Virus record (IMG/VR): IMGVR_UViG_3300042445_000748
Coordinates: 27,553-91,552 of that record
Direction: 5' to 3' (one strand)
DNA length: 64,000 nt
Origin: a virus
This document shows, piece by piece, positions 25,792-61,061 of the stretch. Within the stretch, counting starts at the first letter, position 1. The number at the start of each line of letters is the position of its first letter. A program made the translations under genes and the position numbers. The notes beneath the pieces are model-generated. The model was given only the letters and a program-made list of their open reading frames with translations. It searched no databases and had not been told where the DNA came from.

Positions 25792-28700
25792 TATATTCTA
25801 TTCCCCTTGATTCTTTGAGAATCTATTTGCTTAATCTGCATCATTACCGTTCTAGCAATCTCGTTAGGGTTTGCATCAGACTTAACATTAACACTCAAGT
25901 TATAATTATACACTGAAGATGATTGTTCGTAGTTACCTTTATTTATTGCCTTTAAGTTATCTACCCCAAATTTATCTACACCATACTTACTTACAATAAA
26001 TTCTCCAGGGGTTAACATTGCTGGAACGGTGTCTGTTCCAACTGCAAAACCACCTGAAGCAAATTTTGAAATCATTCCGCCAAGTGCTTTTTTCTTTGGA
26101 GTTAAATATGCTGCAGCCATAGCACTGTATCTTGCTGTTGCTAACTGATTAGCGTTAGGGGCTTGTGCTGGAATAGTTGCAATTGGTTTCATTTTATTAT
26201 CTAAAATTGTTTTAGCAGGGGTATAGGCAAGATTTTGAGCAGCGGTCTTAAGTAGTCCAGTTGACAAAGTTGCTTTTTGAGAAGCACTTAAACTAGACAA
26301 GTTTTGAGATGATGACGATCCTCCTGAGTTGCCCCCTGTACCGCCGCTACCAGAAGAGGCTTTTGGTATATCAATTGTTTCTTGAGTTCCATCATCGTAG
26401 TATATAGTTGTTGAACCATCTTTATTTTTTACACGTTTTGTTTCTTTTTTACCAACTGGAGCATTTGGGTTAACTGTGCCTTCAAGTTTTCCACTATTAT
26501 ATTCGTTCATTTTATTTATTACTTCTTGCCATTTATCTTTTAGTATTGTTACTGCTTCTTGAGAATTTCTAATTGACTGATTGTATCGTCCTGTTGCAAA
26601 ATCTGCTGCATCAATTTTTATTCTTTGCTCTTCCCATTGATCTTTTGTCATTCCAGCAATTCTTAATATTTCTGTTGCAGATTTAATTTCTTCATCTATG
26701 ATGTCTAGTTTTACTTGAGAAAGTCTTGCTTGTTCTTGTAGAGGTGCAATAGTATCTTGATCAATTCTGTAATTTTGATTTTTTAGGTTTTTAACTTTTT
26801 CTTCTAATTGATCTCTTGTTAATCCATTTGAAGTCAAACCATTAATTTGATTGTCTCTTGCATTTTCCATACCAATTCTTTGTTGCTCAAGTGAACTTGC
26901 TGCATTTTGTGCACGAAGTTCTTGTGCTGCTCGTGCCGCTGCATAAACATCTCCTTCAGAAAGTGCTTGTGCAACAGACAGCCTTCCCTGTTCTTGTCTA
27001 GCAATAATTTCATTTACTTTTTGTACTTTATCTAGTAATTTAAACTGCTTATCATACTTGTTGTTAATTTTTTCTGCTTCATCATTTATTGTATTTAGTC
27101 CATCTTCATATCTTGATATTAAATAACTGTTTGCTGCTTGAATACGTTGTGCTATTTTAATTTGTTTTTCTGCATTATCAACTATTAGTTTTTCTTTATT
27201 TATTTCACCTTTTCTTCCAAGTCTAATAATTTGTTCTTGAATATCAAAGTATTTCATTGCTGCATTATAGCCAGGATCAAATGCTTCTGAATAATTTCCC
27301 ATACTCATAGCATTTTTAAATTGTGCTACTATTGCTTTTGCTTTAGATGATACGATGCTTGTTAAACTTTTGTTTGTTTTTTCAGATGCAACTGCGGCTG
27401 CAAATGCATTATCTTTAATTGCTTCATATGCATCAGCAACTGGCATTCCCGCATTAACTAATTTTTTAAAAGCAACTGCTTGATTATTTGTGTCTGCAAC
27501 AATTTTTTCTTGATCATTTTGATATTCACCTAAAGCAATATTGTTTAATGCTTTTTGTAAAACACTTATGTCCTTAAACATTCCTTTATATTTGTCATAA
27601 TCTTCTGCGGATAATCCAGTAATAAAATCAATAGTATTTTGATTAGCACCTTGACCTCTAAGTTTTTGTGCCAAACCACCAAACCCTAATGTCTCTTTGG
27701 ATAGTTTCTTTAAGGCCTTTCCAGAGGCATCCCAACCTACTGTGAGTTCCTGTGTAGCCTTTCTTACGTCTCTTAGTTTTTTTACTATGTCGTCTAATGG
27801 TGACCCTGTTGGTCCCCCGCCACTTCCAGCATCATCTTCAGGTTTAGTTGGAGTTGCTACAGTAGGATCCATTGCGTTTGTTTTCTTTTGTCCAAGTGCA
27901 TTTGCGTATTGTTGCTTTTGAACTGGAAAAGATGCGTTTCTATATTTTTCTCCCCCACCAATACTGGCTGGTTCACCTAACCATTTTTGAACTTCTGGGT
28001 CACCATCAAAAACAGTCTTATCTTGTATAGACATAACAGTAGCAATTTCATTTAAATAAACCTGTCTTTCATTTTCAGTTAATTTATCAAAATATTCTTT
28101 ATCAATTGCACCCAAATATTCTGGTGGTAAAAATGTAGTTGCAACATCATAACTTAACTTTCCTTTATTTTCTTTAATCTGATCATACAAATTATTTAGA
28201 TTATCTCTTGCGTCTTTATTATTTTCATAATAATTAACTAAATAAGCAATGTCTAGTTCTCCACCAGTCATTGTTAATTGTTCGTAAAAATCAATAGTGT
28301 CTTGTGCTTCTTGATCATTTGCTGCACCTTCAACATTAAGTAAGAAATTCTTTTGTGCTTCTTTATCTATTTCACCTTTGCTATCTAAAAACAATGAAGA
28401 TATTTGTTCAACTCTTGCTGCTGAGGTTCCACCAAATTTTGTTATTATATTCATAACTGCATCAAGGTCTTTTTTGTTATCACCAAAAGAATCTAATAAA
28501 GATATCATAGTTGCTGGATCTATATTTTTATTTGCCATTTCCATAGTTAATCTTACTTTAGCAAGTTTGCTGCCCTGAGAAGCAGCAATTGCATCCTGTG
28601 CTAATGGAACAACATCTCCAAACATTGTACCTTCATATGCCTTTGTAGCCATCTTATCTGCTGAATCCTGATATGCTTTTTGCATTGCACCACTGCTATT

Positions 28701-48914: not shown

Positions 48915-49043
48915 TTAGTGAAATGACATTGCTGTATGTTGTTTTGGACTGCAACGTTCACATGATGTATACGTATTTTTAGTATATGGACAAGTAGTTG
49001 AACTTATTTTGTGTCCAATAACAAAACAGATCAACTTATTCAT
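48915..49043 (-). CDS. Small DUF1660-like Cys/His protein (below ORF-track cutoff)
   Basis: Manual translation MNKLICFVIGHKISSTTCPYTKNTYTSCERCSPKQHTAMSFH; ATGA overlap with the upstream stop. Confidence 0.6.
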   Translation of the reverse strand: MNKLICFVIGHKISSTTCPYTKNTYTSCERCSPKQHTAMSFH

Positions 49044-49669
49044 GCTAGTGGAACCCAGTGTTGAAGTTCATCGCCGCTCATATACATTAGTGGAGAAACA
49101 TCATAAGCAAGTGTAATTCTTGGTTTATCAAAAGGCCAAGGACCTATTCCATGCGGATGTCCAGTTTCAGATAAAATAACTCTATTATTTTTATTTATAT
49201 TTTCAATTGGAGTTGCTTCATGTCCACCAATTTTATAATATGTAACAGATGGCTCTGCATCTATACAATAATATCCATGAAAATTGGGAATACCTTTTCC
49301 ACCTAAATGATCGTGATAATGATTATCTTCTTCAAGTGGTGGATTAACCATTGCGTCTGTATTAAACCAACCCTGCACCATATAGTGTTGTTTTTTAAAA
49401 TCAATGTTGTAGTATTCACATGCCTCAACTGTCAAATCTCTAATTGCAGAAAAAATATTGTGTATTGCTGGATTGTAACATTGAAAAACATTAAATTTAG
49501 TTCCTAAATGATGAACACCTTTTGTTGAGTCTGCATACTCTTTTGTTACTTTTGGATATATTCCAGCAAATAAATCTTTTTCAACTTTTAACAAATACCT
49601 AGACAGTCCAGTTAAATCATTTTGAATATACTTTTCAAAAAACTTATGTTTTGGTTTTTCATCTATCAT
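49040..49669 (-). CDS. Putative 2OG-Fe(II) oxygenase (2OG-FeII_Oxy_5/TIGR02466-like)
   Basis: QGWFN...HYHDH...FHGYYC...GHPHG...RITLAYDV. Start at 49669 (ATGA overlap). Confidence 0.65.
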   Translation of the reverse strand: MIDEKPKHKFFEKYIQNDLTGLSRYLLKVEKDLFAGIYPKVTKEYADSTKGVHHLGTKFNVFQCYNPAIHNIFSAIRDLTVEACEYYNIDFKKQHYMVQGWFNTDAMVNPPLEEDNHYHDHLGGKGIPNFHGYYCIDAEPSVTYYKIGGHEATPIENINKNNRVILSETGHPHGIGPWPFDKPRITLAYDVSPLMYMSGDELQHWVPLA

Positions 49670-50331
49670 ACTAATGGAATCCAATGCTGTTCATGTTCTT
49701 TGCCTACGTGTTTTAAGTCATCTAAAGTCATAACATCATATGCAACGGTAATTCTTGGACCTTCCCAATCCCAGTCTCCTTGAGCGTGTGGGTGTCCCAT
49801 TTCTGAAAATATAGCACGGTTATCTATGTTTTTATTTTCTATATCTTTACCAAAAACTCTATAATAAGTTGTAGATGGTTCTGCTTTTACGCAGTAATAT
49901 CCATGAAAGTTATCTGGAGCACCAGTATGACCATGATCATGCCAATTTAACTTACCTTTTGTTTTATGGTTAATATTAAACCATCCTTGTAACATAAATT
50001 TCTTTTTTTCAAAATCTATTTCATAATACTCACAAGCCTCTTTTGCCATATCTTGAATATTTTTATATAAGTTATATATGCCATCAATATGAAATTGAAA
50101 CACATTATATTCTCTCCATTTAACGGTAGAGACACTTCCAGATTCTTGCCAAAAGTCTTTAGAATTAACTGGTGTAATGCCGTCTAATTCTACTTTTTCA
50201 ATCATCTGATATCTATCAATTAACTCATTTGCTAAAATATCTAAATCATTATCTAGCGTTCTTTCAAAAAATTTATGTGGCTTTAAAGATTGACCAATAC
50301 CACGTAGTTCTGGTGGTGGACCTTGTTGCAT
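49666..50331 (-). CDS. Putative 2OG-Fe(II) oxygenase, paralog of the downstream gene
   Basis: QGWFN...WHDH...FHGYYC...GHPHA...RITVAYDV. Confidence 0.65.
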   Translation of the reverse strand: MQQGPPPELRGIGQSLKPHKFFERTLDNDLDILANELIDRYQMIEKVELDGITPVNSKDFWQESGSVSTVKWREYNVFQFHIDGIYNLYKNIQDMAKEACEYYEIDFEKKKFMLQGWFNINHKTKGKLNWHDHGHTGAPDNFHGYYCVKAEPSTTYYRVFGKDIENKNIDNRAIFSEMGHPHAQGDWDWEGPRITVAYDVMTLDDLKHVGKEHEQHWIPLV

Positions 50332-50374: not shown

Positions 50375-51619
50375 CTAGTCTATTGGATATAGGTGGTAAA
50401 CAAGCACTCCGCTTGCATTTATTAGACCAAAAACTTCTCTACCAAACTCGTAGACATTTCTTTTTTCTTTAACAGAGTCTACTTTGTTTACTACTTCATG
50501 AACTTCTTGGTTATCAACAAATTTAACCAACTTGTCGCCAAGAGCAACGCTATCTGTCTTCATCATTAGATATTCTGCATCTCTTAAAATTAATATTTCT
50601 TCTGTATTACTTACTCTGTTATGAATGTCTTCATTAAATATTGTAGTATTTTCTACTTCGTGCATTTTTGTGTATGTAACTTTTGAGTTTATATTTTTAA
50701 TATTTGTAAGTGATTTAGATTTCCATAATCCTATAGTATCTATATTGGCAAGAGGCATTTCATCAAATACTGAAAGAACAAGTGTATCTTCATCTGTTAT
50801 ATCTTTTGCTTTTTTATATCCAGCGTCTGTTAGTATAAGCGAGTGTTCGTCAAAACATATTGGTGAGAAACCAAATACTCTGAATGGTGAAAAACCAAAT
50901 ACTCTGAATGGAGAAAATCCAAATACGGCGAATGGAGAAAATCCAAATACGGCAAATGGAGAAAATCCAAATACTTGGAATGGTGAGAAACCAAATACTC
51001 CAAATGGTACAAATGAAAATGTTGTAGTTATTTCATTTGATAGTGCAGAATATTCTGAGTTTCCATTAGCGTTAGTTGCATATACTTTGTACCGTTGTGC
51101 TGTTCCTGGTTCTTGTGCTAGTGCTGCAGAAGTTGTTGTTGCAGTATCTCCTGATTTACCGTCGTTTGATTCCCAATGATAATTTGTTATTGCTGATCCA
51201 CCGTTTGCTGGTGCAGTCCATGAAATTTGATCTTGATCAGCGTTTGGTGATGAAGCAGTTGGTGCTGCTGGTGTTGCTGGAACAGTTGTTGCTGTAATTG
51301 AATTTGATGCTGCTGATTCACCTGATGTTCCGTAAGTATTTGTTGCAGTTACTTTAAAAGTATATGCTGTATCTGATTGTAATCCTGTTACTGTAATTGG
51401 AGATGATGCTCCAGTGCCTGTAAAACTACCTGGGGTTGATGTAACTGTAAAGGAGTCTGCTGCATAGGTAGGGTCTGCTGTAAATGTTACTGTGGCTGCA
51501 CCATTATTATAGGCCCGACTTATACCAACATTTGTTGCTGTACCAATAGTTGGTGTCTTTGGCATTAAAAAGTCATTAGAGCCTTGAGACTTCTTACCTG
51601 CTTTTTTACCTATTGCCAT
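50375..51619 (-). CDS. FN3-domain protein with (FxVFGFSP)6 repeats and a C-terminal Hint-like domain
   Basis: Two FN3 domains (TVTGLQSDTAYTFKVTATN; ISWTAPANGGSAITNY), six octapeptide repeats, then CFDEHSLILTDAGYKKAKDI...VYEF...GVLVYH. Confidence 0.8.
   Translation of the reverse strand: MAIGKKAGKKSQGSNDFLMPKTPTIGTATNVGISRAYNNGAATVTFTADPTYAADSFTVTSTPGSFTGTGASSPITVTGLQSDTAYTFKVTATNTYGTSGESAASNSITATTVPATPAAPTASSPNADQDQISWTAPANGGSAITNYHWESNDGKSGDTATTTSAALAQEPGTAQRYKVYATNANGNSEYSALSNEITTTFSFVPFGVFGFSPFQVFGFSPFAVFGFSPFAVFGFSPFRVFGFSPFRVFGFSPICFDEHSLILTDAGYKKAKDITDEDTLVLSVFDEMPLANIDTIGLWKSKSLTNIKNINSKVTYTKMHEVENTTIFNEDIHNRVSNTEEILILRDAEYLMMKTDSVALGDKLVKFVDNQEVHEVVNKVDSVKEKRNVYEFGREVFGLINASGVLVYHLYPID
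50861..51004 (-). repeat. Six tandem 24-nt coding repeats (F-[G,Q,A,A,R,R]-VFGFSP)
   Basis: Read directly; units differ at synonymous sites. Confidence 0.95.
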
Positions 51620-51650
51620 GTTATCTCCTTAGTCTTATTATATCAAACTG

Positions 51651-53543
51651 TTATGCAGTTAAATCGCCGTATACAACCCAGGTGTTAGTTGCTCTCTTGA
51701 ATAGAGTGCAAGATGACCACCGTGTACGTAATTTGAGACCTGGTGTAGCATTTACTGTTACTCCTGCGTCTCCTGCGATTGTTACTTGACCTGTACCAGT
51801 TTGAAGAATATCAAGTGATGTTCCAATTGGGAAGGCTACTGCTGAATTAAGAGGAATAGTTAGTGTTGTTGCACTAGCACTATCCATTTCTATTAAGTCG
51901 TCTCTTTCAGTCAATGCTGACAGAGTATAACTTGCTGTCTTTTGAATAATTGGTGTCCGTGAAGGTACACCTTCTAATCTTTGTGTACCGTCTGCAAATA
52001 CGATTCCGTTTGCAGTGATGTCTGATGTTGCAGTGATTGAGTTTGCCTCAAGTGTCAAAAGTGCCAAGACATCTAGTGAACCTTGTCCAAAGTTAACTGT
52101 AGTTGCTGGCTCAGTTGTAACACCATCAAACAATTTCCATTTACCGTCTGTAACGTCTTTGACGATACCAGCATGTTTTTGTGTTCCATCATTATAAGAA
52201 ACTACCAAACCTAGATCTGTTACGTTGTTAGCATTTGTGTGTCCAAGTTGTAACATGGTATCTTCAATTTGTAATTGTGTTGCTGATACTACTACGTTAG
52301 ATCCGTTGACAATAAAGTTTCCATCAACTGTTAAATCTTGATCAATTGTTACATTTCCAGTAAAATCTGCTCCTGAAAGGGATGCTAGATTTCCTAGTGT
52401 TGTTACAAGGTTTGTAATTTTATCTTGATTGATTGTTCCTGATATAGAGTTATTTGTAACAGAGTTATCAAGTGGTGTTCTTGCATCAGAAAGTCTTGCA
52501 TCATCTGTAAGAACTACTGCCAAGGTATTTAGAATACCGTGTACGTTTGATGTATCAGATTCGTGATTGCTTAAATCTGTTAATGTTACAAGTGTTGCTG
52601 TATTTGATATACCGTGAACATTTGTTATTTCTAGATTATGATCTGAAATTGCATTATCTGTGTATTGTTCTAAATCTGTAACTGCATTTCCTAATTCTTG
52701 TTGAAGATCTATTACTGCATTTCCAACCACATCGTCTGCATAATCATTAGCAGCATTAGCAAAAGAAAGATCTGCATTGTCTAAATACAAAACTACGTTT
52801 GCAATTGCACAATCTGTATAATCTTCTAAAGCCACTATAGCGTTATCTAGACCCTCTTGTAAAGAGTTTGCAATGTCGTTTATGTTATTTGATAGTGTAT
52901 TAATATTGTTGTCTACATATTCATATGTCTCATCTTGAGCATTGCTGATGCTATTTGTTATAGTTAAAAAGAAATTTTCATCTTCATTAATAGAGTTTGC
53001 TAATTCTTCAAGGGTGTTTAGTGCTTCTGGTGCAAGCCCTATCAGATTAGCAACTGCGTTATCTGTATAATCATTTGCATCTGCTAAAGCATTGCCTGCC
53101 GCTAAATCAGCGTATGTTTCTAGAGTTGAAACTGCATTAGAAACTGCGTTGTCTGTGTAGTCTTCTGCATCGCTTAATGCGTTTCCTGCTGCAAAGTCAG
53201 CATATTCTTCTAAATCTGAAACTGTATTTGCTACTAAGTTACCTACATCTGTTGATCTAGCAATGCTAGTTGGAATTTGTGCTGTTGGAACTAAATTGCT
53301 TTCATCTAATGTGGCAACACCGTTTGCTGCACCTTTTTGTTCTAATAAAATGTAATCGTCTAGGTTTCCGCCTAGATCTTCTATATTTTTAAAGTATGGC
53401 AAATCATCCCATGCTGTAGAGTTGTCACCTATTTTAAATTGTCCTGTGTCGGTTTCAAAACCAATTTCTCCAGAACCCAGAGTAGGGTTAGCATTAGCCC
53501 ACTGTGTAGCAGTTCCTCTACGTTGTAGCATCCTTGTTGCCAT
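51651..53543 (-). CDS. Tail fibre-like protein (Mtd/hyaluronidase-type N-terminal domain)
   Basis: QRRGTATQWANANPTLGSGEIGFETDTGQFKIGD; APEALNTLEELA fibre motif; acidic coiled coil; C-terminal AFPIG...TNTWVVYGDL domain. Confidence 0.75.
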   Translation of the reverse strand: MATRMLQRRGTATQWANANPTLGSGEIGFETDTGQFKIGDNSTAWDDLPYFKNIEDLGGNLDDYILLEQKGAANGVATLDESNLVPTAQIPTSIARSTDVGNLVANTVSDLEEYADFAAGNALSDAEDYTDNAVSNAVSTLETYADLAAGNALADANDYTDNAVANLIGLAPEALNTLEELANSINEDENFFLTITNSISNAQDETYEYVDNNINTLSNNINDIANSLQEGLDNAIVALEDYTDCAIANVVLYLDNADLSFANAANDYADDVVGNAVIDLQQELGNAVTDLEQYTDNAISDHNLEITNVHGISNTATLVTLTDLSNHESDTSNVHGILNTLAVVLTDDARLSDARTPLDNSVTNNSISGTINQDKITNLVTTLGNLASLSGADFTGNVTIDQDLTVDGNFIVNGSNVVVSATQLQIEDTMLQLGHTNANNVTDLGLVVSYNDGTQKHAGIVKDVTDGKWKLFDGVTTEPATTVNFGQGSLDVLALLTLEANSITATSDITANGIVFADGTQRLEGVPSRTPIIQKTASYTLSALTERDDLIEMDSASATTLTIPLNSAVAFPIGTSLDILQTGTGQVTIAGDAGVTVNATPGLKLRTRWSSCTLFKRATNTWVVYGDLTA

Positions 53544-53612
53544 TTTATCTCCCTGTGTAGGTCTTACCTACTTTGTATTTTGTTTTAATTATAACAGTTT
53601 TTTTAAAATGTT

Positions 53613-54065
53613 TTAATTAAATTCACTGTCTGGATTTCCACCATCAAATACTGCTGCCCATGAATTTGAAAATGGTGTTCCACCACTTAATGTAGAAATT
53701 TGTGGATCGTCATATTGTTCAGCATCCCAGAATACTGTAACAATTCTTCCGTTACCATCAATTGCTGTATCATGAATGTGATCTGGAATATTTTGTACAT
53801 CATTGCTTGTTGCAATTGTAAACCAATCAGTTTCATAATAAACTTTTAATCTTTCTACTGTGGTATCAAACCACATATCCCCATTGTCTGGGGAAAGAGG
53901 GGCAGTATTTGCTACTGGTGTACCAGTTACAGAATCTACGTATTCTTTAGTAGTAGCGTGACTTGAGTGTGTAGGTGTTCCTACTGCTACCGCGTTTCCA
54001 AATGAACCGCCGTTAGTTACGACTAATCCATTCTTGACTTTAAAATCTTTTAGACTTGTAGTCAT
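53613..54065 (-). CDS. Probable fibre-associated virion protein
   Basis: KDFKVKNGL N-terminus shared with 54088..55752; HATTKEYVD and GDMWFDT motifs. Confidence 0.55.
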   Translation of the reverse strand: MTTSLKDFKVKNGLVVTNGGSFGNAVAVGTPTHSSHATTKEYVDSVTGTPVANTAPLSPDNGDMWFDTTVERLKVYYETDWFTIATSNDVQNIPDHIHDTAIDGNGRIVTVFWDAEQYDDPQISTLSGGTPFSNSWAAVFDGGNPDSEFN

Positions 54066-54087
54066 TTACTGCCCCCTAATTTTTTTA

Positions 54088-55752
54088 CTAGACTAACAAT
54101 GTACCAACAACTGTTACATCTGAGTTGTTATTGGCTGTTGCTACTCTTAGTCTTACATCTGTTCCGTTTACGTCTGCAGAAATTGTGGATGCGGATCCAT
54201 TTGTTCCTACAATTGCGTATTCTGTGATTGCGATGTTGTTTGAAGTATCAAGAGTTAAGATAACTTTTGAAACTTCTGTGTGTGCACCGTAAGCAACTTT
54301 TACCAAGAATTCGGCTGAGCGATATTCTGCTAATGCCCAGTCAATTGCTGTAACTGTGCTTGCTGTTGGAGCATTTACTGTTGCTGCAACTTGTCTAGCA
54401 ACTGTGTTAATATCAATTTCAGTGAAATTAGGTATTACTGCTTCAAGAGCATCTACTGCACGTTGATCTGTGAAGTAAAGGTTTGTTGAACCTTCAACCA
54501 AAGCATCTGTGTTAGAGTCTCCTACACCATTTTCTGCTGTAATTACCAATCCTTCAGAGTTACCTGTGATTGAGATATTTGTTAGAGTTGCCATTGTTAA
54601 CAAACTTGCTGCTGACTCTTTAGCCCTTGTATCTGTGAAGTATTCGTTTGTTCCTTCTTCGATATCAGTTGTTGACAAAAGATTAATTGCATTGTCTGTG
54701 TAAGAATTTGCATTTCCTAAAGCATTACCTGCTGCGAAATCTGCATAATCTTCTAAATCAGCAATTGCATTACCTACTTCTAGATCTGTGTAGGAAGTTG
54801 CATTTGAATAAGCATTTGCTGCTGATCCAACTGCGTCATAGTTTGCTGCTAAGCCATCAGCGTAGTCTTCTGCGTCTGATAAGGCATTTGCTGCGGAACC
54901 TGAAGGATCATAACTTCCATTAAAGGAAATTGTGTTTCCTGTAATGTCAATGTCAGTTCCTGCAATTAAAGCATTTTGTTTTAATGCAACCAAGTTGGTT
55001 ATTGTTCCAACAAAGTTTGCATCGTCACCAATTGCTTCTGCGATTTCGTTAAGTGTGTCTAATAATGCTGGTGCATTGTTTGTTAAATCAGCAATTGCAT
55101 TACCTACTGCAAAGTCTGCATATTCTTCTGCATCTGCTAAAGCATTTGCTGCTGAGCCTGCTGGATCGTAGTTTGCTGCTAATCCGTCAGCGTAATCTTC
55201 TGCATCTGCTAAAGCATTTGCTGCTGAGCCTGCTGGATCGTAGTTTGCTGCTAATCCGTCAGCGTAATCTTCTGCATCTGCTAAAGCGTTTGCATAAGCA
55301 TTTGCTGCTGAGCCTGCTGGATCGTAGTTTGCTGCTAATCCGTCAGCGTAATCTTCTGCATCTGCTAAAGCGTTTGCATAAGCATTTGCGGCAGAACCCA
55401 AAAGGTCATATGTTCCTGAAATTGCATTTGCTGCTCTTTCGTTTGTAAAGTAAAGATTTGTTGTTCCTTCACTTACGTCATCAGAATCATGATTAGAAAT
55501 GTCTGATACTGTACCAGTTACATCTCCAACTAAGTCTGCTGTAATTGTATTTGCAAAAAAGTTTGCATTTGCATCACGAAGTACTATTGTGTTTGCTACT
55601 GCATTTGATGAAGCGTCTCCACCAACTAAGTCTACAATGTATTGTTGATCATCTGTACTTTTTGTCAAGATGTCAAAGTTGTTAATTGTACCTGTTGTTC
55701 CTTCAACGACTAAACCATGTTTAATCTTGAAATTTTTTGTTACTGTTGCCAT
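54088..55752 (-). CDS. Fibre-like virion protein with internal tandem repeats
   Basis: EG(T/S)(T/N)xxYFT motifs x3, APALLDTLNEIAEAIGDD, Ala/Asp-rich repeats and a C-terminal EYRSAEFLV domain. Confidence 0.7.
   Translation of the reverse strand: MATVTKNFKIKHGLVVEGTTGTINNFDILTKSTDDQQYIVDLVGGDASSNAVANTIVLRDANANFFANTITADLVGDVTGTVSDISNHDSDDVSEGTTNLYFTNERAANAISGTYDLLGSAANAYANALADAEDYADGLAANYDPAGSAANAYANALADAEDYADGLAANYDPAGSAANALADAEDYADGLAANYDPAGSAANALADAEEYADFAVGNAIADLTNNAPALLDTLNEIAEAIGDDANFVGTITNLVALKQNALIAGTDIDITGNTISFNGSYDPSGSAANALSDAEDYADGLAANYDAVGSAANAYSNATSYTDLEVGNAIADLEDYADFAAGNALGNANSYTDNAINLLSTTDIEEGTNEYFTDTRAKESAASLLTMATLTNISITGNSEGLVITAENGVGDSNTDALVEGSTNLYFTDQRAVDALEAVIPNFTEIDINTVARQVAATVNAPTASTVTAIDWALAEYRSAEFLVKVAYGAHTEVSKVILTLDTSNNIAITEYAIVGTNGSASTISADVNGTDVRLRVATANNNSDVTVVGTLLV
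55125..55393 (-). repeat. Near-identical tandem 72/84-nt coding repeats (ANALADAEDYADGLAANYDPAGSA)
   Basis: About three and a half copies read directly, plus a diverged copy near 54830-54910; ends approximate. Confidence 0.85.
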
Positions 55753-55763
55753 TTTTTATCTCC

Positions 55764-56210
55764 TTATGCCTTAAGTCCCATGCGTGCGTAACGCACAGTG
55801 ACAGGCCGTATAACTGGGTCTGGAGTGATTGTTAAAGCCACTGTATTTCCAGCCCTCGAGACACTTATGGTTCCAATATTCCCATCGTTGTCTATTGTCC
55901 CATATTCAGAAACGGAACTATCTACCGTGTCATTTAATATGGTCAATTCTGTTGCGTAGAAGAGGTTATCTCCTGCTGTTGTTTTAGAGATGGAAATAAG
56001 ATACTTAACCATTCTCCATTCTGTTGCATTATGACTATCTAATATTGTAACGTTTTCAATTTCAGAAATAGTGTTGTCGTTATTACCGAAGGTGCCAAGG
56101 CGTGTTGCTTGGGACGCGGTAGTGTCAATTAAATCTTCATAATCTTGCTGAGATGGCCTATCGCCAGTCTCATAACGTGATTTTACTGTTGTGATTGATT
56201 GTTGTGCCAT
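55764..56210 (-). CDS. Probable virion protein
   Basis: FETGD-like N-terminus (YETGDRPSQQDYEDLID); C-terminal domain (EWRMVKYLI...SEYGTI) resembles the C-terminus of 54088..55752. Confidence 0.55.
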   Translation of the reverse strand: MAQQSITTVKSRYETGDRPSQQDYEDLIDTTASQATRLGTFGNNDNTISEIENVTILDSHNATEWRMVKYLISISKTTAGDNLFYATELTILNDTVDSSVSEYGTIDNDGNIGTISVSRAGNTVALTITPDPVIRPVTVRYARMGLKA

Positions 56211-56248
56211 GCCTAAATTATAACATTATTTTTACAACTTTTTATAAA

Positions 56249-56980
56249 TTAAACAAATATATAGGTTCCTACGTGCACTACTTTAACATGTGGTGCTACA
56301 TATACAGAACCGCCAAGTTTACGCCATAACGTACAGAAATAGTAGTCTTCTGACAAAAGTCTTTCTTCTTCTGGGTCTACCTGAGTTTTCCAAAAGTCAT
56401 AAATGTATTCACCTTTTTTAATTCCACCTAAATCTAGTTGATCACTTTTATATTTTCCAACATGCTCTTTCATTGTTTCAAAAACATTACGTTTAATTAA
56501 CAGCAAACCAGTTCCTATGTTTTTTACCTCTAATGGTTTTTTAGGATTATCTGCTACCTTATGCAAGTCTTGTCTATTAACAAAATTTATGTTTACATAA
56601 GATCCAAACCTTTTTAAATCAGGTTTTTTTAATTCTGCTGCTTTTTCTACGTTAGCCCAGTTAATTGCCTTCATTGGCACGGCAGCCCCAATAATATCTA
56701 AATCTGTATCAATCATATCTATAACACCATCAGCGTTAAAACCTTCGTCACCATCAATAAATAATAGGTAGTCAGCATCAGATCTTAAAAATAGTTCTGT
56801 AAGGGTGTTTCTGGCCCTGTTGATTAAAGATTCGTTGTACAAGTCGTTAAAGGTTACTTTGTATCCTTTGTAGGTTAGTTTCATTACTAATCCCATGACA
56901 CTTTTCATAAAGTATCCATGACAAACCCCACCGTACATTGGGGTTGCTATAAAAATACTAGGTTTTTCTTTTTTATCCAT
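56249..56980 (-). CDS. Glycosyltransferase-like (GT-A fold) protein
   Basis: IFIATPMYGG, ESLINRARN, LLFIDGD (DxD), GTGLLLIKRNVF, LSEDYYFC, HVG. Confidence 0.7.
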   Translation of the reverse strand: MDKKEKPSIFIATPMYGGVCHGYFMKSVMGLVMKLTYKGYKVTFNDLYNESLINRARNTLTELFLRSDADYLLFIDGDEGFNADGVIDMIDTDLDIIGAAVPMKAINWANVEKAAELKKPDLKRFGSYVNINFVNRQDLHKVADNPKKPLEVKNIGTGLLLIKRNVFETMKEHVGKYKSDQLDLGGIKKGEYIYDFWKTQVDPEEERLLSEDYYFCTLWRKLGGSVYVAPHVKVVHVGTYIFV

Positions 56981-56989
56981 ATGTCTATT

Positions 56990-57214
56990 CTACAGTATAT
57001 AGTTGCTATAGCCAATAACCTGTAAAGGAATTGGGGGCACATTACCTGGACCATACCCTTCTACTGTTATTGTTGTAAATCTTATTCTAAAAGGTAAGGT
57101 GTAATTTATTTCTACCGTGCCAGGTTTATAGGATATTTGGGTTTGGTAATAGTCTGAGGTTTCAATACGTCTTAATTTTTGTTTATTGTCATCAACAATA
57201 ATTGCTGTTGCCAT
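56990..57214 (-). CDS. Hypothetical protein
   Basis: 74 aa ending PPIPLQVIGYSNYIL; coupled to the upstream gene. Confidence 0.6.
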   Translation of the reverse strand: MATAIIVDDNKQKLRRIETSDYYQTQISYKPGTVEINYTLPFRIRFTTITVEGYGPGNVPPIPLQVIGYSNYIL

Positions 57215-57621
57215 TAGTCAGTTACATCTTCAAGGATAATCAGACTGCCTTGTGCAACTGTCCAAACAATTTCTGATGTAGATAACTCGATATCAAAGAT
57301 ATCTCCTGTTTGAAGATTATGCGATTCTTCTGCTGCAAGTTTAACTGTGAACTCTCCAGCCAAATCATCTGCATCTGCTGCTGGAGTCAAAAGCATAACT
57401 GTGTTTGCATTATCTGTTATTACTCCAAGATCTTTAGCAAGGTTTGGTCTTTTAATTTTCATAGCAATGTTCCAATCTGCTATAACTAAAGGGGACTGTT
57501 CATCGTCTGTCACATAAACTTTAAATGCTGAGGTGTCACCACGAACTACTGTCCATTTAACGGTTGGGGGTTTAGCACCTACGTCATATAAGTCTTGAGA
57601 AGAGTTTCTAAGAATAGCCAT
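57214..57621 (-). CDS. BppU-N-like Ig-fold virion protein
   Basis: VRGDT...FDIEL...WTVAQGSLIILEDVT; paralogous to 62217..62564 and 63430..63804. Confidence 0.55.
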   Translation of the reverse strand: MAILRNSSQDLYDVGAKPPTVKWTVVRGDTSAFKVYVTDDEQSPLVIADWNIAMKIKRPNLAKDLGVITDNANTVMLLTPAADADDLAGEFTVKLAAEESHNLQTGDIFDIELSTSEIVWTVAQGSLIILEDVTD

Positions 57622-57628
57622 AATGTAA

Positions 57629-58273
57629 TTATATCACGCTTCTATGTTTTATATATATATCACTACATCCATTATTCTCAATAGCATACCCAACTACTTC
57701 CCATGACTGGTTATACTTTAAAAATTGAGTAACTGCTGCTGCAACTGCAAATCCACCACGGTTATTGTTGTCTGGTTCCCAAAATGAGGCATACATAATA
57801 AAATCATTTAAACCTATGATTGTGTTAGATTTTGACATTTCTGTAGACTTTAAAATATCAGATAAAACATAATTAAATCTATGATCAGCATCTATATAAA
57901 TATAATCAAATTTTTTATCTTTTAATGGAAGGATATCTTGTGAATTACCTATTTCTAAAAATACATTATTATACTTTTCAAACCTTTTTTTTACAAAATT
58001 CAAATGTTCTGTTTCATCAAATCTTCTAACCTTTGCACCTTCCCAATCCCACATTTTAAAAGTATCTAAGAGTGTTGCACTTTTAACATTTTTGCTGTTT
58101 AAAACCAGTTGAGAATAATCTCCGCCCAGTACACCTATTTCTAAATAATCTATACTTTGTGGTATTAGATATTTTAAAGCACTTTCTCTATTTGAAAAAA
58201 CTTTACAATTTATTAACTGATTGTCAGATATTGTTTCAACATGATTATGATACTTTTCAATATCAAAATTCAT
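57629..58273 (-). CDS. Class I SAM-dependent methyltransferase (Methyltransf_24-like)
   Basis: YLEIGVLGGD motif I, GNSQDIL, FDYIYIDADH. Start at 58273 (TGATG overlap). Confidence 0.8.
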   Translation of the reverse strand: MNFDIEKYHNHVETISDNQLINCKVFSNRESALKYLIPQSIDYLEIGVLGGDYSQLVLNSKNVKSATLLDTFKMWDWEGAKVRRFDETEHLNFVKKRFEKYNNVFLEIGNSQDILPLKDKKFDYIYIDADHRFNYVLSDILKSTEMSKSNTIIGLNDFIMYASFWEPDNNNRGGFAVAAAVTQFLKYNQSWEVVGYAIENNGCSDIYIKHRSVI

Positions 58274-58800
58274 CAAGAAAGACCGTTCTTTAATGCTCCC
58301 CAAGTACCGTTACCTTTGGCGGTAACTACAAGAACTCCATTAGATGCATCTGCGTAAGCACAAACTGCTACAGCACCTGCACCACTATCTGGTCTAACAT
58401 TTGTTAAACCTCCACCAGTCTTTACGTATAAAACGTCACCTGCAGTAAATTCAGATGTATTAACATCTGGTAATACTCCAGATACAACGCACACTCCCTG
58501 TGCATTATTTGCTGTTGTAGATTTTAATAATCCTAATATTGGTGATGTTGTTGTAGGAATTGCTTTTCCTATTGTTGTTAAATCTTGTCCTGTGTTGTGA
58601 CCATTAATAAATACAGGAGATCCTGCTAATATTGATGCTCCAGATGTATTAATTACATCTAATTTCATGTAAGATAAACCAAGTCCAGCAAGTGTGCTAT
58701 CTAGTGAAGTTGCTAAAGATTGAATATCTTCATGTACGTTTACGTCATCATCAACTAGTGGATATGGTAAGTTATATATGCTTGATTGACCTGTTGCCAT
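58273..58800 (-). CDS. Probable minor virion protein
   Basis: N-terminal YNLPYP...VHEDIQSLA motif typical of actinophage minor tail proteins; FTAGDVLYV...GGLT. Confidence 0.55.
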   Translation of the reverse strand: MATGQSSIYNLPYPLVDDDVNVHEDIQSLATSLDSTLAGLGLSYMKLDVINTSGASILAGSPVFINGHNTGQDLTTIGKAIPTTTSPILGLLKSTTANNAQGVCVVSGVLPDVNTSEFTAGDVLYVKTGGGLTNVRPDSGAGAVAVCAYADASNGVLVVTAKGNGTWGALKNGLS

Positions 58801-58861
58801 ACCAATATTATATCATTTTAAATAATTTTTTGTATTATCTTACTAATATGACATTTTTAAT

Positions 58862-58890
58862 TTGACTTGCTGGCAAATAGATGTTATACT
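58862..58890 (+). promoter_or_regulatory. Sigma70/SigA-type promoter for the transglycosylase gene
   Basis: TTGACT (58862-67), 17-nt spacer, TG-n-TATACT (58882-90); divergent from the minus-strand promoter at 58807-58815. Confidence 0.75.
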
Positions 58891-58938
58891 TGATATATGA
58901 CACCTACCAAGGGTGTCATGTTTTCTTAGGAGAGAACT

Positions 58939-59514
58939 ATGAAAAAAGATAAAAAATTTTTAATAGGATTGCTCGCAAGTCTTGGATTGTCTTCAGTATT
59001 CTTGAATATTTCTAATGCTCAAGGTGTTGAAACTAACCTGAAAAACGATCAGTATACAACATTTACCGCTGAGGCGGTTTTTTTGCTTTCTAGGCCAGAT
59101 CACTTAGATAAGCCATCTAGAGATAATGTAAGGACCCTTGCTGAATATCAGGATAAAGGACAACTTACTGATATTGAACTAAAAACTTTGCTGTCTGCTT
59201 GTGGTTTTGAAAATAAACACCTAGTAGAGGCTTGGGCTATTGCTAAAAAAGAATCAATGGGTAACGCCTTGGCTTTTAATGGCAACAAAAGCACTGGAGA
59301 CAAGTCATACGGATTATTTCAAATAAATATGATTGGTGATCTTAATGCTGATAGAAAAGAAAAATATAATTTAGACTATACTAGTCAACTTTTAAACCCA
59401 TCAATTAATTGTCAAGTTGCTTATATTATGAGTGATGGTGGTAACAATTGGGGACCCTGGAAAGGTATAACTTCAAAAACTAGAGAGTTTATGTATCAAT
59501 TTCCTAAAGATTAA
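58939..59514 (+). CDS. Secreted lytic transglycosylase (SLT/Rpf-like lysozyme fold)
   Basis: Signal-peptide-like N-terminus, WAIAKKES (catalytic Glu), SYGLFQIN, LLNPSIN...NWGPW; the only credible plus-strand gene. Confidence 0.85.
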   Translation: MKKDKKFLIGLLASLGLSSVFLNISNAQGVETNLKNDQYTTFTAEAVFLLSRPDHLDKPSRDNVRTLAEYQDKGQLTDIELKTLLSACGFENKHLVEAWAIAKKESMGNALAFNGNKSTGDKSYGLFQINMIGDLNADRKEKYNLDYTSQLLNPSINCQVAYIMSDGGNNWGPWKGITSKTREFMYQFPKD

Positions 59515-60401
59515 TCTATTGGATATAAGTGATATACCAAAACGCCGTTAATGTCTAATAGTCCAAATATTTCTCTACCAAATTCATAGACGTTTCTTTT
59601 TTCTTTTATTGAATCTACTTTATTAACTGTTTCATGAATTTCTTTGCCATCTACAATTTTAACTATTTTATCTCCAAGAACTACACTGTCTGTTCTTTCC
59701 ATAATATATTCATTATTTCTTAGTATTAATATTTCTTCAGTGTTACTTATCCTATTTTGTATATCATCATTATAAACTGTAGTATTTTCTACTTGATTTA
59801 CCTTTATATATGTTACTTTTGACTCTATGTTTTTAACATTTGTTAATGATTTAGACTTCCAATGTAAAATAGTGTTTATATTTGCCATAGGAATTTCATC
59901 AAATGTTGACACAATAAAGGTATCACTGTCTGTTATTTCTTTTGCTTTTTTATATCCATTAGTTGTCAATACTAATGAGTCTTCATCAATACATATTGGA
60001 GAAAATCCAAATACTGTAAATGGAGAGAAGCCAAATACTCTAAATGGAGAAAATCCAAATACAGCAAAAGGAGAAAAACCAAAAACACTAAAAGGAGAAA
60101 ATCCAAACACCTGAAATGGAGAAAATCCAAACACCCCAAATGGTGTAAATGTAAATTGTCTAACTGTTAAGTCAACTGGAGTTTCATAATCTGCTGCCGT
60201 GGTAACTGCAGGAGTTTGTTCAATAACTTTTCCATCATTTGCGGCCTCTGCCTCTTCTCCAGAAACTGAAGTAATTACGTTTCCTAAAGTAAATCCTTCT
60301 GATACAACATCTGCTTGTGCTTGTGCACTGGTTCTGCCAATAAAGTTAGGAAGTAATTTCATTCCTTTTGCTACAACGTATTTAACTAATTTTCCAAACA
60401 T
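59511..60401 (-). CDS. PASTA-domain protein with (FxVFGFSP)6 repeats and a C-terminal Hint-like domain
   Basis: LPNFIGRTSAQAQADV...GKVIEQTP...VDLTV (PASTA), six octapeptides, then CIDEDSLVLTTNGYKKAKEI...GVLVYH. Confidence 0.8.
   Translation of the reverse strand: MFGKLVKYVVAKGMKLLPNFIGRTSAQAQADVVSEGFTLGNVITSVSGEEAEAANDGKVIEQTPAVTTAADYETPVDLTVRQFTFTPFGVFGFSPFQVFGFSPFSVFGFSPFAVFGFSPFRVFGFSPFTVFGFSPICIDEDSLVLTTNGYKKAKEITDSDTFIVSTFDEIPMANINTILHWKSKSLTNVKNIESKVTYIKVNQVENTTVYNDDIQNRISNTEEILILRNNEYIMERTDSVVLGDKIVKIVDGKEIHETVNKVDSIKEKRNVYEFGREIFGLLDINGVLVYHLYPID
59997..60140 (-). repeat. Six tandem 24-nt coding repeats (F-[G,Q,S,A,R,T]-VFGFSP)
   Basis: Read directly; units differ at synonymous sites. 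Confidence 0.95.
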
Positions 60402-60410
60402 GACAACCCC

Positions 60411-61061
60411 CTATGCGATCAAGTCGCCGACTAGAAGCCAGGTATTTGTGTCAAACTTAAACAAAGATACACCTGAATATCTTGCTGCAATTGATTTATT
60501 ACTATTTTTACTATTTAAAGTAACTCCTGTATCTGCAATAAAAGTAACAGATCCAGTATTCATTCTAAAAAAATCTATTTCTGATCCTATTGGAAAAGCA
60601 ACTGTAGAATTGGGTGGAATTGTAACTGTCCATGTACTTGTAGAATCAAAAGTCATTGTTTGACCAATATTGTCTAATGATAAGTTCCAGTTTTGTACTC
60701 CACTACCACCTTGTTTATTAAATGTAACTAATCCACCGTGAGAAATCCAAGTGGTACCATTATAAAACTGTAAATCATTAATTGCTGATCCACCAGAAGT
60801 CTGTCTAACAAAACATACTGTTCCTCTTACAGGTGATGGTAATGCAATATCTCTTGCTGCGGGATTTAAATAGTTATTTACTCCAGCCTTTGCTGTAATT
60901 ACTGCGTTGGTGTCTGAAAATACAACATTATTTTGAAATTCATGTGTTCCAGACCAGTTATAATTTGCAGCGGCATTTGTATTTCCACCAATTGCATAAA
61001 ATGTATCTGTTCCTTGATCGTAAACGTATGCTGTTTTACCACTAGTATTTAATGAAGCCAT
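60411..61061 (-). CDS. Short fibre-like virion protein
   Basis: AARDIALPSPVRG...LQFYNGTTW; C-terminal AFPIG...TNTWLLVGDL domain homologous to that of 51651..53543. Confidence 0.65.
   Translation of the reverse strand: MASLNTSGKTAYVYDQGTDTFYAIGGNTNAAANYNWSGTHEFQNNVVFSDTNAVITAKAGVNNYLNPAARDIALPSPVRGTVCFVRQTSGGSAINDLQFYNGTTWISHGGLVTFNKQGGSGVQNWNLSLDNIGQTMTFDSTSTWTVTIPPNSTVAFPIGSEIDFFRMNTGSVTFIADTGVTLNSKNSNKSIAARYSGVSLFKFDTNTWLLVGDLIA

Follow-up and report, generated by a model that had tools for sequence, protein, structure and literature searches.

A predicted BIL-like Hint domain behind a phenylalanine-rich repeat in fibre-associated proteins of lake phages

A 64,000-nucleotide stretch of viral DNA, here called the window (IMG/VR record IMGVR_UViG_3300042445_000748, positions 27,553 to 91,552), contains two genes which encode proteins with different binding modules and a common C-terminal cassette, composed of a Phe-rich repeat and a domain of 160 residues. 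Structure prediction and profile comparison identify this domain as a divergent, BIL-like Hint domain, and database searches revealed that the layout of repeat and Hint domain is common in lake phages. We propose, giving it slightly better than an even chance, that the domain is a removable cap which would cleave at the Ile|Cys junction, so that a secondary fibre protein would end distally in the exposed greasy repeat. Newly established here are the pairing of Hint genes with knob-ended fibre genes, the alternative ends of the proteins encoded behind knob genes and the exchange of the cassette between FN3 and PASTA genes.

Results

The first gene, FN3-Hint (50375..51619, minus strand), encodes 414 residues in which a conserved N-terminal peptide is followed by two FN3 domains (Pfam fn3 in two stretches, E = 5.7e-9), the Phe-rich repeat and the Hint domain. 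The second gene, PASTA-Hint (59511..60401, minus strand), encodes 296 residues with a PASTA domain (Pfam, E = 3.6e-6), the repeat and the Hint domain; both assignments are based on the open reading frames (ORFs) together with Pfam. BLASTP found the N-terminal parts of the two proteins unrelated, and aligned residues 201–414 of the former without gaps to residues 83–296 of the latter (165 of 214 residues identical, 77%; E = 3e-129). According to a codon-level listing, the repeat tract of FN3-Hint (50858..51019, minus strand; residues 201–254) consists of FSFVP, six FxVFGFSP units and Ile, and that of PASTA-Hint (59994..60155, minus strand; residues 83–136) of FTFTP, six such units and Ile. The 160-residue domains start directly behind, at Cys255 in FN3-Hint (50378..50857, minus strand), delimited by alignment and the family profile, and at Cys137 in PASTA-Hint (59514..59993, minus strand), where AlphaFold2 and Foldseek define the domain.

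The original prediction, made from the DNA letters, had described two genes with unrelated N-termini (two FN3 domains versus one PASTA domain) and the same C-terminal cassette, in agreement with the ORFs, Pfam matches and BLASTP alignment. Its hand count of about 72% gap-free identity between the 160-residue domains was accurate, as a codon-level script yielded 71.9% identity for protein and 74.4% for DNA. Likewise, position 2 of the octapeptide alone varies (G,Q,A,A,R,R versus G,Q,S,A,R,T), and the claim that the peptide rather than the DNA repeat is under selection was confirmed: between the paralogous tracts 22 codons differ synonymously and 4 non-synonymously, corresponding to a ratio of non-synonymous to synonymous substitution rates (dN/dS, Nei-Gojobori) of 0.04. 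For the Hint domain, this ratio was 0.10–0.15 both between the paralogues and versus orthologues; these low values indicate that the peptides of repeat and Hint domain are under purifying selection. The predicted number of exactly six units is correct for both genes of this phage but does not extend to its close relatives, which have 5 to 8 or more octapeptides. No paper describing a fibre-protein architecture of repeat and Hint domain was found in the literature, consistent with the remark in the original prediction that it was not recognised as a described system. A word-indexed search returned 28 close relatives, every one with FN3 or PASTA architecture, and orthologues of the 414-residue protein are present in many lake-phage contigs.

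The FSFVP tract is uncharged except for two Arg residues at position 2 of units 5 and 6. A linkage of repeat and Hint domain in metagenomic homologues, which the original prediction had named as a check, was found in the wider family: 41 of 58 representatives with a recognisable first Cys (Cys1) have at least 40% aromatic residues plus Pro in the 40 residues preceding it, and most of the remaining 17 contain shorter aromatic/Pro tracts. The median composition of these 40 residues is 28% aromatic, 20% Pro and 3% charged; elsewhere in the protein the corresponding shares are 8%, 6% and 10%. The repeats themselves are diverse and comprise FxVFGFSP, PFGF[ST], FFSPPx repeated about 30 times, irregular [FY]FP/[FY]FPP, PPIISII and PPPVAPP, with unit lengths of 3/4, 5, 6 and 8 residues among relatives. 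Hence, the aromatic, proline-rich and almost uncharged character of the tract is conserved, and a fold-specific periodicity is not. The repeat contains too much proline to form ordinary helices or sheets and is an unexplained structural element. Two further observations concern such tracts. The FGFSPFGF-type repeat alone matches stretches of GVMAG giant-virus contigs (L109, L113-L116), where no Hint match was reported, and Phe-Gly-Ser-Pro repeats may occur in other virus groups. A single low-depth contig of a lake RNA library joins both repeat tracts of the window (50903 and 60094); either the assembly went wrong at the repeats, or the two cassettes have recombined.

Tandem near-identical units with a single variable position, often close to oxygenase-like genes, could be read as a precursor of a ribosomally synthesised and post-translationally modified peptide (RiPP), with six Pro-terminated octapeptides as cores released or matured with the help of the Hint domain. 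This suggestion of the original prediction is hardly credible in view of the variation in repeat sequence and period, from the 8-mer FxVFGFSP and the 6-mer FFSPPx to irregular FFP/FFPP tracts without unit boundaries. Moreover, the tract belongs to proteins of a fibre module with folded FN3 or PASTA domains, many orthologues lack the processing domain, no protease, cyclase or exporter is linked to the genes, and a Hint domain is able to make just a single cut, in front of its first residue.

The known Hint domains comprise inteins, BIL domains, the processing domains of Hedgehog proteins and those which release pretoxins. AlphaFold2 modelled residues 137–296 of the PASTA-Hint protein, using a 30-sequence alignment, with a predicted local distance difference test (pLDDT) value of 94.5. 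A Foldseek search of the PDB with this model retrieved 21 matches with E ≤ 0.001 which, like those listed beyond, are Hint domains. Inteins, BIL2 of Tetrahymena, a BIL domain of C. thermocellum and the Hedgehog autoprocessing domain were the top matches, with template modelling (TM) scores of 0.6–0.7 to 1at0, 6y75, 2lwy and Mtu RecA and a maximum of 0.70 for the Hedgehog domain (1at0). Comparison of the family profile A2 with PDB sequences pointed to the same proteins, namely the C. thermocellum BIL domain 2lwy (E = 4.9e-8), the Pho RadA intein 4e2u (1.1e-7), KlbA 2jmz (8e-7) and BIL2 6y75 (1.8e-5). The resemblance to Hint domains noticed in the original prediction, which had proposed a Foldseek comparison of the 160-residue domain with Hint structures, is thus supported at the levels of predicted fold and sequence profile. 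Among 86 family members, 20 gave Pfam Intein_splicing matches with E up to 0.001 (best 8e-8); the matches that were inspected one by one fell below the gathering score.

IMG/VR contains relatives at 31–33% identity, and a profile of eight domains matched 147 cluster representatives (clusters at 50% identity) with E up to 1e-3 among 1.84 billion representatives; in nearly all of them the domain occupies the extreme C-terminus. Cys1 is invariant across clades which are just 31–33% identical (alignment A1), and it is retained behind the repeat in most full-length family representatives. These divergent clades also share the Ser of block B and block A, in which Cys1 is followed by LT..G..KAK[DE]I. 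Block B of the family reads S-x-x-[H/Q/E] instead of T-x-x-H, and the PASTA-Hint domain reads S-N-T-E; in a hidden Markov model (HMM) alignment to the Pho RadA intein the window Ser is placed over the block B Thr and the Glu over the His. His-Asn occurs within the last 25 residues of 85 of 129 family members, typically as VHN followed by one to a few residues. The clade of the window ends with VLVYH-LYPID, with His at the aligned terminal position, and judged by sequence has lost the terminal Asn present in most family members.

The nearest known class is therefore that of the A-type BIL domains, from which the window domain deviates in block B and by the lost terminal Asn. It is not a true intein, because only L-Y-P-I-D follows the C-terminally located domain, which leaves no C-extein, no +1 nucleophile and no Asn. 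Assignment to the Hog domain of Hedgehog proteins was rejected, as the proteins have no sterol-recognition region and only 5 residues after block G. A pretoxin Hint domain was rejected as well, since no toxin domain follows and the window proteins have no PT-HINT match; in the family, PT-HINT matches with E up to 0.001 were restricted to 4 of 86 members (best 7.8e-7). The Peptidase S74 intramolecular chaperone was discarded on account of the absent Pfam match and the Hint fold.

Both Hint genes are located 10–32 nt behind a same-strand gene which ends in a conserved domain of about 92 residues, here referred to as the knob. Directly upstream of FN3-Hint, a gene at 51651..53543 (minus strand) encodes a fibre protein of 630 residues with an Mtd_N-type N-terminus (Pfam Mtd_N, E = 1e-11), matches to tail-fibre PHROGs and the knob as its last ~92 residues (51654-51938; knob HMM 143 bits at the extreme C-terminus). 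Directly upstream of PASTA-Hint, the gene at 60411..61061 (minus strand) encodes 216 residues, of which residues ~110–216 (60414-60740) form the knob (116 bits). These are the only two knob genes of the window, and each adjoins a Hint gene; the original prediction had overlooked this partner. The knob is characterised by the C-terminal motif ...TPGLKLR..WS.ATL.KR..NTW...GDL.A-COOH, in which G, V, two K, W and GDL are invariant. In the fetched loci, 78 Hint genes have an ORF closely upstream on the same strand, and in 75 of these cases that ORF ends in the knob.

The AlphaFold2 model of the 216-residue protein's knob (pLDDT 84–95) assigns it a TNF/gp10-like fold. It superimposes with the C-terminal knob of the Pa223 capsid spike (9ny6_C, residues 197–293) with a root-mean-square deviation of 1.9 Å over 97 residues (Z = 14.2), and further matches were obtained to the baseplate protein of Klebsiella phage KP1 (9f4a, Z = 10.6), the XD region of CBA120 TSP4 (7rej, residues 79–182, Z = 8.6) and, by Foldseek, T4 gp9 and gp10. 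The Pa223 spike is homotrimeric and its knob was described as a TNF fold by its authors (bioRxiv 10.1101/2025.06.11.659172). In branched fibre complexes, additional fibre proteins dock on XD domains (PMC8825819). A complex prediction for three knobs of the 630-residue fibre and the whole FN3-Hint protein scored 0.02 versus a mark of 0.32 in a run without controls, a value which carries no weight for or against their contact. The same knob ends minor tail proteins in 261 cultured-phage records, mostly of Gordonia phages, in which the gene after the knob is unrelated to the Hint proteins; the pairing of knob and Hint genes is thus a trait of this aquatic phage group. Gordonia phage Baddon was considered as a cultured model and rejected: behind the gene for gp39, a minor tail protein with the knob at its end, it encodes an unrelated 202-residue protein without the repeat.

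An IMG/VR search with the knob alone detected this partner fibre gene at no fewer than 582 loci (at least), 80 of which were kept, with 73 complete downstream genes. FN3-repeat orthologues account for 71 of the 73, and they share the N-terminus MAxGKKxGKKSQASNDFLEP, two FN3 domains and a [FY]FP/[FY]FPP or PFGFT tract. Their ends differ: 32 terminate in a Cys-rich tail, 18 in the Hint domain, 16 in the repeat itself and 5 in another tail. The Cys-rich tails have 20–40 residues with 6–12 Cys (for example ...CSGC..C..C..CCGSCGC; L121-L192, such as L137:645-1580 and L127:4310-5197), and from their sequences look like an undescribed mini-knot or metal-binding cap. On a FastTree phylogeny of the FN3 module the cap type switches at least 29 times, and at least 9 changes of Hint alone are required by branches with good support, the support values being approximate. 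The orthologues which end at the repeat show that the cap could be dispensed with in the course of evolution. Some of the Hint caps behind knob genes (L133, L136, L143, L154) begin with Ser instead of Cys (...GSLGP[SN]VLVRTENGL...), which implies an oxyester rather than a thioester route.

The cassette also moved between gene types. In the tree of Hint domains the FN3 and PASTA types interleave with at least 4 switches, and one clade with 99/99 support contains both types with identical domains. The proteins P0021 (PASTA) and P0023 (FN3) are 100% identical over the 160 residues of the Hint domain and in 208 of 214 positions of the aligned cassette, and their N-termini are unrelated. Such interleaving and identity next to unrelated N-termini indicate that the repeat-Hint cassette was exchanged between FN3 and PASTA genes. 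The 18.5-kb record behind L119 has a single copy, and the copies in the window have diverged to 72% identity.

The conserved residues of the knob bear on a different role of the Hint domain, ligation, which the original prediction had also considered. In this role a thioester at Cys1 would serve to ligate the C-terminus of the repeat covalently to a knob Lys, another virion protein, a lipid or a host cell-wall amine. PASTA domains bind cell walls, the portal is similar to actinophage portals, and two Lys of the knob are invariant (K68 and K81, alignment A4). There is also precedent for such chemistry, as the Hedgehog Hint domain passes its N-terminal part to cholesterol (PMC7765530) and BIL2 of Tetrahymena, which belongs to the closest fold matches, forms an isopeptide bond to Lys without ATP (PMC8616854). 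However, the knob Lys are equally conserved beside Hint-less and Cys-tailed orthologues and hence do not covary with the Hint domain, for which reason the knob Lys was marked down as acyl acceptor. The proteins end 5 residues after block G without an extension resembling a sterol-recognition region, and altogether we regard ligation as unlikely.

With similarly low probability, the Hint fold might be a stable, non-cleaving binding or capping domain at the tip of the virion-borne fibre, with Cys1 in a structural role. The exchange of the block B His for Glu and the absence of the terminal Asn in this phage would fit such a role, as would the strong purifying selection over the whole domain. The Cys-rich tails, which resemble permanent small knots, make a permanent end module plausible. 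On the other hand, Cys1 directly behind the repeat, block A and the block B Ser have been kept across clades of very low identity, most family members keep the C-terminal His-Asn, and the orthologues ending exactly at the repeat match the predicted product of cleavage.

The almost charge-free repeat is likely to aggregate, and its octapeptide period recalls the triple β-helix of T4 gp5, which is built from an 8-residue repeat. The Hint domain, or the Cys-rich knot in its place, might therefore act as a cleavable assembly chaperone which sets the register of the chains or keeps the repeat soluble before being cut off; a cleavable folding chaperone had also been among the suggestions of the original prediction. 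Comparable devices are the intramolecular chaperone at the C-terminus of tailspikes and the propeptide of collagen, and the closest structural match of the partner knob derives from a homotrimeric spike (bioRxiv 10.1101/2025.06.11.659172). Nevertheless, some orthologues make the repeat without any cap, the variable period and sequence of the repeat argue against one defined multi-chain fold, and the fold of the domain is Hint rather than Peptidase S74. We consider this role rather improbable, if worth keeping in mind.

The source of the window is an uncultured lake-water phage of roughly 120 kb. Its IMG/VR record comprises 91.5 kb, estimated to be 76% complete, and contains just these two Hint genes; complete relatives of 110–116 kb have one or two each. 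The window includes genes for a portal, a protease, the major head and a ribonucleotide reductase as well as a block rich in fibre genes, and its portal is 47% identical to those of 120–133-kb Streptomyces phages. The DNA recurs across lake-water metagenomes of many studies. Lake metatranscriptome contigs with 90–95% identity span both Hint genes, and such libraries can contain DNA. Searches of phage records gave no match to the 10-kb region (megablast) and one weak FN3 match to the FN3-repeat part (tblastn), from which we conclude that these records contain no cultured phage with the FN3-repeat module. The only match of the Hint domain in 50,697 phage records was a tail protein of Phage NCTB (27% identity, E = 8e-4).

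Just downstream of FN3-Hint, two paralogous genes (49040-49684 and 49666-50331, minus strand) encode proteins of 214 and 221 residues without a Pfam match even at E = 10. Atlas feature look-alikes of these genes, to be taken as a lead only, have PF13759 (2OG-FeII_Oxy_5) with a score of 0.96, and on the strength of these look-alikes the genes possibly encode distant 2-oxoglutarate (2OG)-Fe(II) oxygenases. In distant relatives, two Pfam-confirmed 2OG-FeII_Oxy_3 genes occupy the same position; BLASTP of the 214- and 221-residue proteins against the Pfam-confirmed 2OG genes of L006 revealed no similarity. Of 128 distinct loci, 62 have a member of one or the other family immediately behind the repeat gene, whether or not the latter encodes a Hint domain, and about 500 such ORFs were counted across about 200 loci. 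Hydroxylation of the Pro-rich tract by these neighbours is conceivable.

Several other genes occur in the region. The only plus-strand gene of the region (58939-59514) encodes an SLT/lysozyme-like protein (Pfam SLT_3, E = 1.3e-14) with a hydrophobic N-terminus; it is convergent with PASTA-Hint and overlaps the stop codon of the latter. A fibre protein of 554 residues (54088-55752, minus strand) contains several near-identical units of about 30 residues (DAEDYADGLAANYDPAGSAANA...), and RNA-library contigs have rearranged joints inside its gene, which suggests copy-number variants among strains. Inside the fibre block, between the two knob/Hint pairs, lie a glycosyltransferase-like gene (56249-56980, minus strand; weak Anp1 match, E = 1.1e-4) and a methyltransferase gene (57629-58303, minus strand; Methyltransf_24, E = 8.5e-7).

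Discussion

The reading we favour, with restrained confidence, is that of a removable cap. A fibre gene with a C-terminal TNF/gp10-like knob is followed by the gene for a secondary protein consisting of a binding module (two FN3 domains or PASTA), the repeat and the Hint domain, and this protein would sit on the fibre. Once the Hint domain has folded, Cys1 would attack the Ile-Cys peptide bond in an N-to-S acyl shift, and the resulting thioester on the carbonyl of the Ile which ends the repeat would be resolved, most simply by water. The Hint domain would then depart and the Phe-rich repeat would become the free C-terminal, distal end of the secondary protein, presumably its working part in contact with the host or another surface. 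In evolution the cap is optional, as genes behind one and the same type of knob gene encode a Hint domain, a Cys-rich tail or a bare repeat at their ends. Cleavage finds its strongest indirect support in the natural repeat-ended orthologues, which correspond to the product predicted for self-removal of the Hint domain. BIL domains are known to autocleave at their N- or C-terminal junctions and are found in hypervariable proteins (review PMC7765530).

Several observations weigh against this reading. Pfam detects nothing in the last 160 residues of either window protein. The block B His, which helps the acyl shift in inteins, is replaced by Glu in this phage, relatives having H, Q or E at this position, and without the terminal Asn chemistry is possible only at the N-terminal Ile|Cys junction. 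Hint-less orthologues make the repeat without any cap, and these forms were seen for the FN3 type only, the Hint domain being kept in 10 of 10 distinct close relatives of the PASTA type. That the Hint protein docks on the knob we infer from gene order alone. Finally, these very proteins served as bait in the search for loci, and near-duplicates are present among the latter, so that the counts given here are not independent samples.

One can further speculate about a loaded thioester carried on the virion like a harpoon, at the far tip of a secondary fibre protein, although we consider this a long shot. PASTA and FN3 modules would bring the cell wall close, a host cell-wall amine or a knob Lys would attack the Ile-Cys thioester, and the phage or the fibre complex would be tethered covalently through the Phe-rich tail as the Hint domain falls off. 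The Cys-rich tails would then represent an alternative disulfide chemistry, and the 2OG-like neighbours might hydroxylate the Pro-rich tract.

Whatever its chemistry, a divergent Hint clade missed by Pfam is tied to one particular neighbour, an almost uncharged aromatic/Pro repeat at the end of proteins associated with the fibres of abundant lake phages. With three ends that can replace one another (Hint domain, Cys-rich knot or none), nature provides an experiment on the purpose of the cap. If the cap is indeed cleaved off, the receptor-binding appendages of phages would mature by a step that is new, and the domain would be a compact self-cleaving tag with a natural C-terminal position; if instead a thioester is transferred, covalent chemistry would take part in phage attachment or assembly.

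Comparison with known systems shows which parts of this arrangement have precedent. T4 gp10, the XD region of CBA120 TSP4 and the Pa223 knob share their fold with the domain ending the upstream fibre genes. Here the knob is located at the C-terminus of the fibre, and it is gene order only that points to docking of the Hint protein on it. The Hedgehog Hog domain (1at0) is likewise a C-terminal Hint domain, with the highest TM score observed, which releases its N-terminal part through the Cys1 thioester; the phage protein differs in having no sterol-recognition region and in its end shortly after block G. BIL2 of Tetrahymena BUBL (6y75, 6tmm) has a closely similar Hint fold, and its thioester can pass to Lys to give an isopeptide (PMC8616854). 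It is flanked by ubiquitin-like domains and has a zinc-activated block B His, whereas the phage domain is flanked by the greasy repeat and has Glu at the His position.

The tail protein of Phage NCTB (LT598654, annotated as 'putative phage tail protein, contains intein domain') resembles the window proteins as a tail-region protein with a C-terminal Hint domain preceded by a low-complexity linker (GGGG|C). It differs by its canonical T-x-x-H and His-Asn and by an N-terminal part which is collagen-like, lacks FN3 and PASTA domains as well as the aromatic repeat, and is known from annotation only. In the genome of this jumbo phage, intein domains are annotated in three genes next to each other (L001 4960-12219), encoding the collagen-like tail protein with the canonical Hint end (GGGG|C ... 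T-E-Q-H ... HN), a free-standing 153-residue Hint protein and a 1304-residue 'large intein domain protein'.

The closest counterparts are the A-type BIL domains (Amitai 2003, Dassa 2004; reviewed in PMC7765530). The phage domain shares with them, and with 2lwy as its best PDB match by sequence profile, the Hint fold, the absence of a homing endonuclease and of a nucleophile after the domain, and a variable, modular, surface-type host protein; most members of the phage family also end in His-Asn. The window copies differ in their position at the very C-terminus, the missing terminal Asn and the Glu in place of the block B His. What sets the phage domain apart from A-type BIL domains is that it is preceded by an aromatic/Pro-rich repeat, resides in fibre modules and is missed by the Pfam Hint models.

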